The position numbers were made by a program, and so were the translations under genes. Below are positions 42,257-45,390 of a stretch of 64,000 nucleotides of DNA, piece after piece. Source of the stretch: an uncultured Bacilli bacterium (lineage in GTDB: Bacteria; Bacillota_I; Bacilli_A; RF39; UBA660); NCBI GenBank assembly GCA_944371905.1, contig CALVYA010000001.1, forward strand, positions 5,627-69,626. Reading direction: 5' to 3'. The notes beneath the pieces are model-generated. The model was not told where the DNA came from. It saw nothing but the letters and a program-made list of their open reading frames with translations, and did no database searches. The number at the start of each line of letters is the position of its first letter. Within the stretch, counting starts at the first letter, position 1.

Positions 42257-42268
42257 GGGGGGGGGGGG
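42257..42268 (+). repeat. G12 homopolymeric tract immediately 5' of a TATAAT -10 hexamer
   Basis: ggttgaGGGGGGGGGGGGtataatg. An extreme outlier in a genome this AT-rich. Classic contingency-locus architecture. Confidence 0.8.
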
Positions 42269-42342
42269 TATAATGTATATGAGATAAACTAAAGCGGAGT
42301 GATAAAGATGTATAGAAGTAAGAAAATATAAACATAGGAGTT

Positions 42343-43797
42343 ATGTGTGCCTTGGTGCTAGTAATGGTAGTAGTGTATGCTGCATTTATGACCAGATTAA
42401 CAATTAATGGAACAGGTAATATAACAAGTACTTGGAGTATAGAAATAACTTCTATCACTAGTAGTATTACAGGAACAGCTTATAACATAAGTGAACCAAG
42501 TTATAATAGTACCAGTGCTACTTTTAATGCAGGATTAAGAAAGCCAGGAGATAAGATAGAATATAGTATAACCATAAAGAACAGTGGAAGTGTAGATGCC
42601 ATCATCAATGAAGTAAATATTAAAACCACAGGAAGTTATGTAATCATATACACAATAGAAGAAATACAGAATCAAGAAAGATTAACGTCAGGTGCTAGTA
42701 AGACATTTAAAATCATAGTAGAATTTGATAGAGAGGCAACTTCTATACCAAGTGATACAACAAAAGAATTAATCATGGATATTGAGTGTATTCAAGATGA
42801 TGGTCAACAATTAACTCCAAGTGATCCTAATATAGATAATGAAGATACGGGAAAACCAACATTAGTAAATGCAATATTAAAGAATAATCAAGCCCAAAGT
42901 GATGAGAATATAAATTTTATTTATACAAGTGAACAAGATGGAACGAAAGGATTATATTATACAAATACTAATACAGAAGACAACAAAACAACATATTACT
43001 TTAGAGGAGCAGTAGAGAATAACTATGTGAGCTTTGCAGGATTTTATTGGAGAATCATAAGAATCAATGAAGATGGAACAGTCAGATTAATCTATCAAGG
43101 AACAACACCAACAGCAACTGGAAACGAAGCAACAATAGGTAGTAGTGAATTTAACACTAACTCTCATGACAATGCGTATGTGGGATATATGTATGGAACA
43201 CCAGGAAGTAGCACATACGAAGAAACACACTCCAATATTAATAATAGTACCGTAAAAGGAGTAGTAGATACGTGGTATAAAAATAATTTGTTGAATAATT
43301 ATTCAGCTTATATAGCAGACTCAGGGGTTTGTGGAGATCGAAGTTTATTTACAGGAACAGGAGTTGGTGCTACTAATGAAACATCATATGGCCCATATAA
43401 GAGATTAAATGCAGGTACGGGTGATCGGGAGCCACAATTTTCCTGTCCACAAAGTAATGATTTATATACAACTTCTAGTAGCAATAAAGGAAATAAAGCA
43501 TTAGATTATCCAATAGGATTAATAACAGCGGATGAAGTAGCATATGCTGGTGGAAGTGCAAATTCTGAAAACAATAGCAATTATTTAAATTCCAGTGTTG
43601 GTTGGACCATGTCACCATATGAACTTCATTGGGTTCCAGATGAGTATATTGCTGTTAATTTTACGGAATTAACTACTAATAATGTGCATAACAGTGCTGG
43701 AATTAGGCCAGTCATCAATCTGAAATCAACTGTAGAAATAACTAGCGGAGACGGAACCAGTTCTAATCTATACGTAATTAAAACCGCAAATTTTTAG
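42343..43797 (+). CDS. TasA/camelysin (peptidase M73)-like N-terminal domain protein with large C-terminal extension; N-terminal signal peptide apparently disrupted by a frameshift
   Basis: VYA|AF junction and FNAGLRKPGDKIEYSITIKNSGSVDAIINEV resemble the TasA/CalY mature N-terminus (TWA|AF ...NLKPGDKLTKDFQFENNGSLAIKEV). The 6-aa ORF MYRSKKI at 42308..42331 in another frame would complete a SipW-type signal peptide. Confidence 0.5.
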   Translation: MCALVLVMVVVYAAFMTRLTINGTGNITSTWSIEITSITSSITGTAYNISEPSYNSTSATFNAGLRKPGDKIEYSITIKNSGSVDAIINEVNIKTTGSYVIIYTIEEIQNQERLTSGASKTFKIIVEFDREATSIPSDTTKELIMDIECIQDDGQQLTPSDPNIDNEDTGKPTLVNAILKNNQAQSDENINFIYTSEQDGTKGLYYTNTNTEDNKTTYYFRGAVENNYVSFAGFYWRIIRINEDGTVRLIYQGTTPTATGNEATIGSSEFNTNSHDNAYVGYMYGTPGSSTYEETHSNINNSTVKGVVDTWYKNNLLNNYSAYIADSGVCGDRSLFTGTGVGATNETSYGPYKRLNAGTGDREPQFSCPQSNDLYTTSSSNKGNKALDYPIGLITADEVAYAGGSANSENNSNYLNSSVGWTMSPYELHWVPDEYIAVNFTELTTNNVHNSAGIRPVINLKSTVEITSGDGTSSNLYVIKTANF

Positions 43798-44262
43798 ACT
43801 AAATTCCGTTTTTTAACGAAATTTTTTCTTTTTCATATTAATTACCGTTTTTATAACGATAAACGGAAATAAACTTGATAAAAATTCTAATTTTAACGAA
43901 TAATTATATAAATTATTCCACGACAAAAATACGGAGGTTATTTCCGTTTTTCAAACTTATTGCCGTTTTTTAAATATTACTAGAATAGTAAAGAGTTTAA
44001 AAACTGCATTTATCTATTGATAACAAACAAAGATGGACTTTGTTTGTGTTACTTATTATAATCAATGAAATTTAAAAATCAAGGGTTTTATAAACTCATT
44101 TCATTCGCCCTTGATTTTACATTTCATTATACTATAATCAGACTTATTGCCGTTTTTTTAATAAAGCGGAATTCCAAATGAAAATTAACGATACGTAATT
44201 AAAACTAATTAAAAGAGTAGTAATTACTCTTTTTTTTTGTTATAATTTTAAAAGGTGGTATT
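43798..44262. repeat. 465-bp non-coding region with at least five direct copies of ATTNCCGTTTTT and two strong hairpins
   Basis: Motif copies at about 43802, 43841, 43940, 43961 and 44146, plus an inverted copy at 43857. Hairpin acaaacaaag-atgga-ctttgtttgt near 44021..44050. Stem aatcaaggg / cccttgatt with a 24-nt loop at about 44077. Confidence 0.5.
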
Positions 44263-45390
44263 ATGATATATTTAGATTATTCTGCAACAACTCCTGTGAA
44301 TGAAGAAGTATTAGATACATTTGTAAAAGTATCACGTGATTTTCCAGGAAATCCTAATTCTCTACATAGTCTAGGAGTATCTTCAAGAGAGTTAATAGAT
44401 GCTTCTACTAAACAAATAGCAGATATCCTAAAAGTAAAACCTAGTGAAATTATTTATACTAGTGGAGCTAGCGAATCTAATAATACAGCAATCAAAGGAA
44501 TTTGCTTACAATATCAAAATAGAGGTAAACATATCATTACAACTAATTTTGAACATTCTTCTATTTATGGACCAATTAGTTATTTGCAAACATTAGGTTT
44601 TGAAGTAGATTTTGTAAAAACAGATGCTAATGGAATTGTTGATTTAGATGATCTAAAAAGTCTTTTAAGAGATGATACTATTTTAGTATCAATTACAGCT
44701 GTAAATAGTGAAATAGGAATTGTAGAACCTATTGAAGAGATAGGGAAAATATTAAAAGATTATCCTAAGTGTTTTTTTCATTCTGATTTAACTCAAATAA
44801 TAGGGAAAAAAGAAATTAATTTAGAAAATGTTGATTTAGCTAGTTTTTCTGCTCATAAATTCTTTGGATTAAAAGGAATAGGAGGACTTATAAAAAAAGA
44901 CAAGATAAATTTAGTACCGTTAATTCACGGGGGAAAGAGTACGACTATTTATAGAAGTGGAACCCCAGCAGTAGCACTTATTGCATCTTTTGCTAAAGCT
45001 TTAAGATTGGCTTATGTTGATATAGAGAAACATTATAATTATGTTACCAAACTAAATAATATGGTGAAAGAAGAACTTGAAAAATATTCAAACATCCATA
45101 TTAATAGTAATAATAAATGCTCACCATATATATTAAATCTTAGTGTGATGGGAATAAAACCGGAGACCATGCTTCATGCTTTGGAAGAAGAAGAGATATT
45201 TATATCAACACAGACAGCATGTTCTAGTGGTAATTCTTATTCGAAAGCAGTATATAGTTTAACTAATGATAAAGAATTAGCATCTAGCAGTATTCGTATA
45301 AGTTTATCTTATGTTACTAAAGAAGAAGAAATAAAAATATTTTTAGATAAATTTATCAAGATAGTCGATAAATTATCATTAAGGAGTTAA
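44263..45390 (+). CDS. cysteine desulfurase (class V aminotransferase, NifS/IscS-like)
   Basis: LDYSATTPV N-terminus, PLP-lysine motif SFSAHKFFG, active-Cys loop QTACSSGNS. 375 aa. Confidence 0.8.
   Translation: MIYLDYSATTPVNEEVLDTFVKVSRDFPGNPNSLHSLGVSSRELIDASTKQIADILKVKPSEIIYTSGASESNNTAIKGICLQYQNRGKHIITTNFEHSSIYGPISYLQTLGFEVDFVKTDANGIVDLDDLKSLLRDDTILVSITAVNSEIGIVEPIEEIGKILKDYPKCFFHSDLTQIIGKKEINLENVDLASFSAHKFFGLKGIGGLIKKDKINLVPLIHGGKSTTIYRSGTPAVALIASFAKALRLAYVDIEKHYNYVTKLNNMVKEELEKYSNIHINSNNKCSPYILNLSVMGIKPETMLHALEEEEIFISTQTACSSGNSYSKAVYSLTNDKELASSSIRISLSYVTKEEEIKIFLDKFIKIVDKLSLRS

Follow-up and report, generated by a model that had tools for sequence, protein, structure and literature searches.

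Elements of the IS30 family carry a single ORF, have a length of 1.0-1.7 kb and inverted repeats of 20-30 bp, and usually duplicate 2-3 bp of their target. Bacterial MITEs, such as the Correia elements, RUP and MIC231, are short, AT-rich and ORF-less, possess terminal inverted repeats and are flanked by a target duplication. Their presence varies between strains, their ends are homologous to those of an autonomous IS, and assemblies break at their positions. For IS30 itself, the formation of tandem (IS30)2 dimers and of circles with abutted ends has been described (PMC9330008). Long target duplications are documented in IS30-type elements of mycoplasmas. IS1630 of Mycoplasma fermentans M64 has inverted repeats of about 27 bp and is accompanied by duplications of 16, 23, 25 and 26 bp (PMC3317919); a paper by Calcutt et al. 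(1999), cited in PMC7648426, states in its title that IS1630 targets inverted repeats. ISMhom-1 of Mycoplasma hominis consists of one transposase ORF with untranslated regions (UTRs) of 108 bp on the 5′ side and 140 bp on the 3′ side and has 27-bp inverted repeats (PMC7648426). This element inserts intergenically and at the 3′-ends of genes, where ORFs are preserved, and its flanking repeats measure 6-15 bp (PMC7648426). In the literature searched, neither an ORF-less derivative nor a subterminal motif array is described for IS1630, and no publication on a MITE of IS30-family origin was found.

Here, we present the analysis of a 465-bp non-coding gap in the genome of an uncultured Bacilli bacterium, carried out within a stretch of 64 kb of DNA which is referred to as the window. 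Positions 43785-44190 very probably represent a 406-bp MITE which derives from an IS30-family IS of a divergent lineage and has no transposase ORF.

A 421-bp insertion absent from a near-identical strain

The gap lies between the stop codon of the upstream gene (43795-43797) and the next ATG at 44263. The upstream ORF, whose stop ends at 43797, encodes a TasA-like protein of 484 aa. Downstream, the gene starting at 44263 encodes a class-V aminotransferase (cysteine desulfurase) and heads a cysteine desulfurase/thioredoxin operon. Homopolymer-tract variation was seen at the 5′-end of the same upstream surface-protein gene, where poly-G and poly-A tracts lie at 42257-42330; it may be phase variation or an assembly error. 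A look-up of its exact 484-aa product gave no match because gene callers choose other start codons. A scan of the window for tRNA and tmRNA genes found none, so the locus is not a tRNA-linked integration site.

A preliminary description of the region, based on the letters alone, had reported an unusually long intergenic region with a repeated motif, two hairpins and a small ORF. All of these sequence features are real. It had overlooked an exact 15-bp direct repeat, ATACGTAATTAAAAC, at 43770-43784 and 44191-44205. When the region was simulated 3000 times by a Markov model, 0.8% of the runs produced an exact repeat of at least 15 bp. The stretch of 406 bp enclosed by the two copies starts with CGCAAATTTT and finishes with AAAATTAACG, and its 28-bp ends form imperfect inverted repeats (19 of 28 positions matching) in register with the duplication boundaries. 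The end on the IRL side is also found upstream of the transposase ORF at the metagenome loci L040, L041, L025 and L045 (see below). The features of the region, in positions of the window, are:

43770..43784: first copy of the target-site duplication, ATACGTAATTAAAAC; within the final codons of the TasA-like gene (484 aa); present once in the empty allele L002
43785..44190, minus strand: 406-bp element, very probably a MITE; the IS sense (IRL to IRR) runs on the minus strand of the window
43785..43812: terminal inverted repeat of the IRR side, 28 bp, CGCAAATTTTTAGACTAAATTCCGTTTT
43800..43813, plus strand: motif copy 1, TAAATTCCGTTTTT; inside IRR, 29 bp from the end; column identity 0.86
43839..43852, plus strand: motif copy 2, TAATTACCGTTTTT; 68 bp from the IRR end
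43859..43872, minus strand: motif copy 3, inverted, with the minus-strand sequence TTATTTCCGTTTAT; distance to the IRR end 88 bp; column identity 0.90
43938..43951, plus strand: motif copy 4, TTATTTCCGTTTTT; 167 bp from the IRR end; column identity 0.92
43957..43970, plus strand: motif copy 5, TTATTGCCGTTTTT; 186 bp from the IRR end
44023..44047, minus strand: perfect 10-bp hairpin in the 3′ UTR of the parent IS, just after the transposase stop codon; probable terminator
44075..44118, minus strand: second hairpin, in which the start codon and ribosome-binding site of the former transposase gene survive as relics
44144..44157, plus strand: motif copy 6, TTATTGCCGTTTTT; 34 bp from the IRL end
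44163..44190: terminal inverted repeat of the IRL side, reverse complement CGTTAATTTTCATTTGGAATTCCGCTTT; includes a further motif copy, inverted and degenerate
44191..44205: second copy of the target-site duplication; read in frame it leads to ..T N *, the stop at 44210-44212 being the ancestral gene end
44211..44238, plus strand: intrinsic terminator native to the upstream gene, AAAAGAGTA-GTAAT-TACTCTTTT with a run of T behind it

Public assemblies were searched with the exact cysteine desulfurase protein, which was found on 22 contigs, and 10 places were available among the matches listed. At eight of these 10 places the same 465-bp spacer is present, and the element together with 100 bp upstream and 80 bp downstream is 100% identical to the window; at the ninth (L006), the contig starts 31 nt inside the element. 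The remaining place, L002 (GCA_944372315.1, CALVYX010000012.1), belongs to a near-identical strain with a desulfurase protein 100% identical to that of the window and flanks of 93-97% identity, and it lacks exactly these 421 bp. It reads ..CCATACGTAATTAAAACTAATTAAAAGAGTAG.., that is, one copy of ATACGTAATTAAAAC followed by TAATTAA, the terminator and the downstream gene, and the 406 bp are absent. Its upstream gene ends with ...YVIKTN*, 50 bp before the desulfurase gene. The island is an insertion of 421 bp, made up of 406 bp of element and 15 bp of duplicated target. As for the intergenic region described as unusually long, its length of 465 bp is correct, but 408 of these 465 bp belong to a strain-polymorphic insertion missing in a close relative; with the insertion discounted, the native spacer amounts to about 50-57 bp. 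The island is not a conserved intergenic region of unusual length.

The direction of the change can be read from the upstream protein. Its homologues form a large paralogous family (7748 matches), many of which, several of the closest included, end in PYVIKTN. Since these homologues end like the empty allele, the short form is ancestral and the form in the window derived.

In the window, the second copy of the duplication runs on in frame straight into the canonical terminator AAAAGAGTAGTAATTACTCTTTTTTTTT, which in the empty-site allele L002 is located directly 3′ of the stop of the upstream gene. The insertion puts 421 bp between the upstream gene and its own terminator, and bases 43785-43797 of the element now encode the last codons and the stop of this gene (..T-ANF*). 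The C-terminus of the protein is thereby altered from ..KTN to ..KTANF (..YVIKTANF in the window allele), and the 3′-end of a surface-protein gene has been remodelled by a mobile element. On the desulfurase side, the terminator, the promoter region and the SD are unaltered, and no evidence for a regulatory role of the insertion was seen.

Copies at other sites were sought with a 21-mer of the left end in a set of genomes in which each species has one representative. This yielded five genome matches, three of them relevant loci; the two matches in Lewinella and Fibrobacter do not agree with the end pattern of the element. In the uncultured Bacilli bacterium E09__bin297 (L015), the identical 406 bp are located upstream of the rpsJ leader and are flanked by a different 15-bp direct repeat, TATTTTACAAAAATC. 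One further MAG contains the left end with other flanks at two loci (L016 and L017), where the contigs stop inside the element and the available 135 and 139 bp are identical to the window copy. The duplications differ from site to site, which rules out an att core and shows a mobile element whose insertion duplicates 15 bp of target. A presence/absence polymorphism was observed: the site is empty in L002, and two other MAGs contain identical copies, at three loci in all. The occurrence of the identical element in at least three MAG lineages indicates an apparently recent spread, and the element may still be active. A blastn comparison of the region with 50,697 phage records gave no match and that with 72,556 plasmid records only one 52-bp low-complexity match (E = 3e-3). 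Scans of IMG/VR for two motifs in tandem, for the two ends of the element and for the degenerate end pattern returned only two chance matches; these were a giant-virus tandem repeat and an unrelated contig.

Full-length relatives and the subterminal motif

With a degenerate pattern for both ends, CGYWAATTTTYANNNNNAATTCCGYTTT, 40 metagenome loci were obtained. In 24 of 42 metagenome matches, the DNA retrieved breaks off 52-66 nt into the element. Contigs that stop inside an element are explained by a multicopy repeat and are a known signature in de Bruijn assemblies; as the element breaks metagenome assemblies, knowing it could aid the scaffolding of MAGs. Seven metagenome loci contain complete elements of 1434-1547 bp with both end types and a single ORF of 374-385 aa. 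Size, the single ORF and the 28-bp ends agree with the description of the IS30 family. All six ORFs tested match the NCBIfam model NF033563 (IS30 family transposase) over nearly its full length (model positions 12-267) with E-values from 1e-19 to 2e-25, the scores of 71-90 bits straddling the curated cut-off of 80. In addition, the three ORFs scanned against Pfam all have HTH_38 at the N-terminus (E = 7e-6 to 9e-13), and in tblastn searches against plasmids all matches are annotated as IS30 family transposases, with an identity of at most 32%. The candidate catalytic residues D214, D276 and E315 and the block CDP..Q..E..N..R are invariant with respect to three annotated IS30-family transposases. 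The transposases also have an extra Cys-rich segment, and those of different full-length copies are 66-76% identical to each other. The full-length relatives are thus assigned to the IS30 family by a predicted N-terminal HTH and a predicted DDE core.

Five full-length ISs (L031, L041, L040, L025 and L045) are 74-88% identical to the 406-bp element over both untranslated regions, as judged by blastn and global alignment; for the nearest full-length ISs, the identity in the shared parts is 74-86%. None of the full-length relatives sampled is an autonomous copy with ends identical to those of the MITE, and tblastn of the family transposases against the 64-kb window revealed no transposase gene. 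In IS orientation, positions 1-65 of the MITE correspond to positions 1-65 of L031 and positions 220-406 to the last 187 bp of L031, both with 85% identity. A global alignment to L031 extends the left block to the SD/ATG and the right block back to the hairpin behind the stop codon. The relic transposase start reads ATG AGT TTA TAA on the minus strand (44099 down to 44088) and includes an early stop. By this alignment, the window copy is the IS minus its ORF, retaining about 100 bp of 5′ UTR up to the relic start codon and about 280 bp of 3′ UTR. It has no transposase ORF, it is bounded by terminal inverted repeats and a duplication, and its ends are homologous to those of an autonomous element, as in MITEs. 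All of its motif copies but one are located on the side of the 3′ UTR, which carries five conserved copies within about 280 bp.

The motif had drawn the attention of the preliminary description. The sequence ATTNCCGTTTTT occurs in four exact copies (43841, 43940, 43959 and 44146), all within the gap region, compared to an expectation of 0.13 in the whole 64-kb window, and four copies were reached in none of 100 shuffles. Five direct copies had been listed: those at 43841, 43940 and 44146 are exact, the one placed at 43961 actually starts at 43959, and that at 43802 is the one-mismatch variant AATTCCGTTTTT. In its longer form, TTATTNCCGTTTTT, the motif is present in five direct copies (43800, 43839, 43938, 43957 and 44144) and one inverted copy at 43859-43872 on the minus strand, the inverted copy having been noticed before. 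Outside the region, the 64-kb window contains no exact and only one single-mismatch copy of TTATTNCCGTTTTT. The sequence TTTTAACGAA is indeed present twice, at 43811 and 43891.

The positions of the motif are fixed with respect to the element ends. Measured from the IRR end, the offsets in full-length ISs and MITEs are 29, 68, 88 (inverted), 167 and 186, the last two being replaced by 157 and 176 in some elements. The inverted copy recurs at 88-89 bp in every one of the seven full-length ISs that have two well-matched ends, and a copy lies 34-35 bp from IRL in nearly all full-length ISs. This spacing is kept even where the transposases are only 66-76% identical. Column identities were taken from an alignment of the IRR-proximal 200 bp of 11 elements: the means are 0.79-0.92 for motif positions, compared to 0.94 for the terminal 12 bp and 0.69 for the remaining positions. 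Copy 4 is preceded by a conserved half-palindrome, ACGGAGG. The motif core AATTCCGYTTT also forms the inner half of each terminal repeat. By these alignments, the motif is a conserved cis element of the IS. Since its core recurs as the inner half of both terminal repeats, it is probably a recognition sequence and candidate binding site of the transposase.

Iterated binding sites for a DNA-binding protein had indeed been suspected. What stands of this idea is the conserved cis element; a host regulator with a regulon is not indicated, and the most likely protein is the predicted transposase of the element. An operator array of the host controlling the cysteine desulfurase/thioredoxin operon or a wider regulon would account for the location of the array upstream of this operon and for the strong over-representation of the motif (four exact copies against 0.13 expected). 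However, the whole array is missing in a strain with an identical downstream protein, the same 406 bp are found at unrelated loci in other genomes, and the motif belongs to the ends of transposase-bearing elements. Moreover, the terminator of the upstream gene stands between the array and the operon promoter. We regard such host operators as very unlikely.

A structured RNA was the second suggestion, the motifs being taken as its arms. A structured non-coding RNA, a riboswitch-like leader or a type I toxin-antitoxin system (the 38-aa ORF with an antisense RNA) would fit the folding of the region, which is far stronger than that of shuffled sequence (z = -6.0 and -7.1 on the two strands), as well as two clean hairpins and a small hydrophobic ORF. 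Both hairpins exist as described, the perfect 10-bp one with arms at 44023-44032 and 44038-44047 and the second, AAAATCAAGGG / CCCTTGATTTT, at 44075-44118. The hydrophobic ORF of 38 aa, which has no SD, extends from 44065 to 44181. The Rfam scan of 43300-44800 at a permissive E-value gave only chance-level matches (best E = 2.4), with bit scores all far under the gathering scores, and the earlier remark had been that no riboswitch or T-box was recognised. Both strands fold equally well, and such equal, strong folding is explained by inverted repeats at the DNA level; the notion of RNA arms was not upheld. Furthermore, one hairpin coincides with the region of the relic ribosome-binding site and the other with the 3′ UTR that followed the lost transposase gene. 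In the L031 counterpart of the perfect 10-bp hairpin, a C>T exchange on one arm is matched by G>A on the other, so that the pairing is kept. The terminator of the upstream gene is again located between the island and the downstream gene, and part of the small ORF, besides having no SD, is a translated copy of the repeated motif (LIAVF). We regard an RNA or toxin-antitoxin function as very unlikely. For the annotation, a false lead is removed, as there is neither a new riboswitch nor an operator array upstream of the desulfurase operon.

Accepting the island as a MITE, we propose the following course of events. The MITE transposed into the last codons of the TasA-like gene, just 5′ of its terminator, and 15 bp of target were duplicated on insertion, the transposase cuts presumably being staggered by 15 bp. 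The terminator and the desulfurase promoter region were thereby shifted 421 bp downstream but not otherwise altered. The cis-acting sites of the element are its terminal inverted repeats of 28 bp together with six or seven copies of TTATTNCCGTTTTT; the protein most likely to bind them is an IS30-type transposase, by way of its N-terminal helix-turn-helix domain. This transposase would be supplied in trans from a full-length copy elsewhere. At 406 bp, the element offers a small substrate whose conserved candidate sites for transposase binding are clearly defined.

Target duplications and further alternatives

Clean 15-bp duplications were observed at four independent insertions, namely the MITE of the window, the MITE of L015, the full-length IS of L045 (1529 bp) and an 85-bp mini-derivative in L021. 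A search for duplications found none recognisable at the full-length elements of L025, L029, L031 and L057 and at the short derivatives of L043 and L056, and L035 shows only a degenerate flanking match (17 of 20 positions). The lack of a duplication at six elements is perhaps due to age or to recombination between copies. Among the four duplications, a target consensus or hairpin target was sought; the sites are AT-rich, and no rule is definable from four. A duplication of 15 bp in four insertions does not agree with the 2-3 bp usual in the IS30 family. It departs from the typical value and not from the family, since long duplications are documented in mycoplasma IS30-type elements.

The 15-bp repeat could also be read as the att core of an integrative-element remnant (an attL-attR scar, CIME-like) left by a tyrosine recombinase, with the motifs as arm-type sites. 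The position at the extreme 3′-end of a gene, the restored frame, and a 15-bp identity block with subterminal sites resembling attP would suit such a remnant. However, the flanking 15-mers differ at each of the four sites, which identifies them as target duplications and not as a shared core, and the full-length relatives encode a DDE IS30-type transposase and no integrase. The att-core and arm-site reading was dropped when a different 15-mer was found to flank the identical element in L015, and its probability is practically negligible.

Cas1-type casposases are the best-known source of 14-15-bp target duplications in combination with terminal inverted repeats. A casposon-derived MITE was considered because of the 15-bp duplication, which is constant at four sites, and the terminal inverted repeats. 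The idea was dropped, as the full-length copies encode an IS30-type transposase: the relatives measure only about 1.5 kb and contain a single IS30-family ORF, and Cas1 or polymerase B was found in none of those recovered. A casposon origin is extremely improbable.

Finally, it is extremely improbable that the island is ancestral and that L002 lost it through a deletion between 15-bp direct repeats present by chance: a deletion of this type would yield exactly the observed empty allele, but chance exact repeats of this length are rare (the above 0.8% of simulations), the homologues end with ..YVIKTN like the short allele, and the same 406 bp with the same boundary bases occur elsewhere with other 15-bp repeats.

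Comparison with described elements

The finding is an ordinary mobile-element insertion, of modest interest for its constant 15-bp duplication, its ordered subterminal array and its apparent recent spread. It adds a previously uncatalogued MITE/IS pair, apparently recently active, in uncultured low-GC gut Bacilli.

With the prototype IS30 of E. coli, the full-length relatives share the HTH_38 N-terminal domain, the DDE core, the match to NF033563 and inverted repeats of similar length. In L031, two head-to-tail copies are separated by exactly 15 bp between IRL and IRR, a single case in which the contig ends 55 nt into the second copy; this single observation recalls the abutted-end dimers and circles of IS30. 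The relatives differ from the prototype in a transposase at most 32% identical to the IS30-family transposases annotated on plasmids and in a duplication of 15 bp instead of the 2-3 bp typical of the family. The spacing from the second D to the E is 38 residues, compared to 33 in an Edwardsiella IS30-family transposase in the same alignment, and the ends contain multiple subterminal repeats, in contrast to the simple inverted repeats of IS30.

A more specific view, possible but rather doubtful, would place these elements in a distinct IS30-type lineage of uncultured gut Bacilli with an unusual transposition complex. Its transposase would read the 28-bp ends together with an ordered set of five right-end and one or two left-end subterminal sites, cut with a fixed 15-bp stagger and pass through a junction intermediate of the form IRL-15 bp-IRR; the MITE would be the minimal substrate with all required cis sites. 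Under such a view, the ordered subterminal sites would be more like those of Tn7, Mu or IS21 than those of IS30.

The proposed MITE resembles bacterial MITEs in general in being short, AT-rich and ORF-less, in its inverted repeats and duplication, in its strain-variable presence and in the breaks that it causes in assemblies. Unlike other MITEs, it has retained both complete parental UTRs including the six-copy motif array.

The closest likeness is to the mycoplasma elements. Like IS1630, the present elements combine an IS30-type transposase, a host among the low-GC Bacilli/Mollicutes, inverted repeats of about 27 bp and long duplications; IS1630 is said to target inverted repeats, and the target in the window abuts a terminator. 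Compared by description only, they differ from IS1630 with its variable duplication in the constant 15 bp of four clean cases, and the full-length relatives are longer (1.43-1.55 kb versus 1.18-1.38 kb). With ISMhom-1 they share a single ORF between sizeable UTRs, insertion at a 3′-end which leaves the ORF intact, and repeats of up to 15 bp. In contrast to ISMhom-1 with its repeats of 6-15 bp and 140-bp 3′ UTR, they have a 3′ UTR of about 280 bp with five motif copies, and the window copy is ORF-less. Judged by these sequence features, the present elements would fit the long-duplication branch of the IS30 family, with IS1630 and ISMhom-1 as the closest described members, and would extend this branch beyond the mycoplasmas.

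Promoter and start region of the TasA-like gene

Two features were found in the 5' region of the TasA-like gene, the gene in whose last codons the 406-bp MITE is inserted:

Window 42257-42268: poly-G tract just upstream of the TATAAT hexamer (42269-42274)
Window 42308-42345: start region of the TasA-like gene, with the conserved start MYRSKKNIIIGV.. frameshifted

The homopolymeric G tract directly adjoins the -10 box of the promoter and is likewise present in L001-L010, the contig places encoding the same cysteine desulfurase as the window. Its length varies among assemblies of the same species, with G12 in the window, G7 in L001, L003, L009 and L010, G8 in L002 (the allele lacking the MITE), and G14 in L005. 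The tract looks like a phase-variable promoter spacer, the alternative being a homopolymer error in assembly.

Further downstream, the conserved start is intact in L002 and in homologues; the window carries it in frameshifted form, as does every MITE-bearing locus covering the region (6/6). Here, an A5 run is shortened to A4, leading to a stop at 42329-42331. Because the ORF picks up again only at the ATG at 42343, the signal peptide is left without its charged N-region. The gene may be a pseudogene or may be turned off through slippage in the A run.

Protein family and insertion target

A Pfam search with the upstream “TasA-like” protein (window 42343-43797) gave no match. Its paralogous family is very large, with 7748 hits found at E <= 1e-10, and PF19789 is present in a few of these. 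Compared with homologues P0001-P0120, it shows a conserved N-terminal half and a conserved ..PYVIKTN tail, together with a hypervariable C-terminal third. Since this tail is common to the family, the 15-bp target of the MITE probably recurs in paralogues of the gene.

Derivatives and full-length members of the IS/MITE family

Three features were found in metagenome loci:

L021 10346-10430 (OLNZ01001045.1): 85-bp mini-derivative flanked by the 15-bp duplication ATAATCGACAAAATG
L031 5200-5334 (OIYS01003957.1): head-to-tail pair of full-length IS copies
Transposases of L025, L040, L041, L031 and L057, residues about 57-80 (alignment): Cys-rich segment C..RWPYVC.GC..RY...C

The mini-derivative comprises hardly more than both element ends; the family therefore yields non-autonomous derivatives of several sizes, namely 85, 278, 316 and 406 bp. 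Many metagenome contigs among L019-L055 break off 52-66 nt into the element, and one Logan contig from the same species as the window (L006 1-31) begins at a point 31 nt within it. In these gut metagenomes, assemblies repeatedly break because of the IS/MITE family.

In L031, the left inverted repeat of the first copy is followed, after a spacer of exactly 15 bp (GATTAATAAATTATA), by the right inverted repeat of the second; the spacer is as long as the target duplication. This arrangement may represent an IS30-type intermediate, either a tandem dimer or a circle junction.

The Cys-rich segment of the transposases follows the HTH domain, precedes the catalytic core and may constitute a zinc-binding module. 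In the alignment, it is also present in IS30-family transposases of Clostridium and Butyrivibrio and is absent from an IS30-like protein of Edwardsiella.
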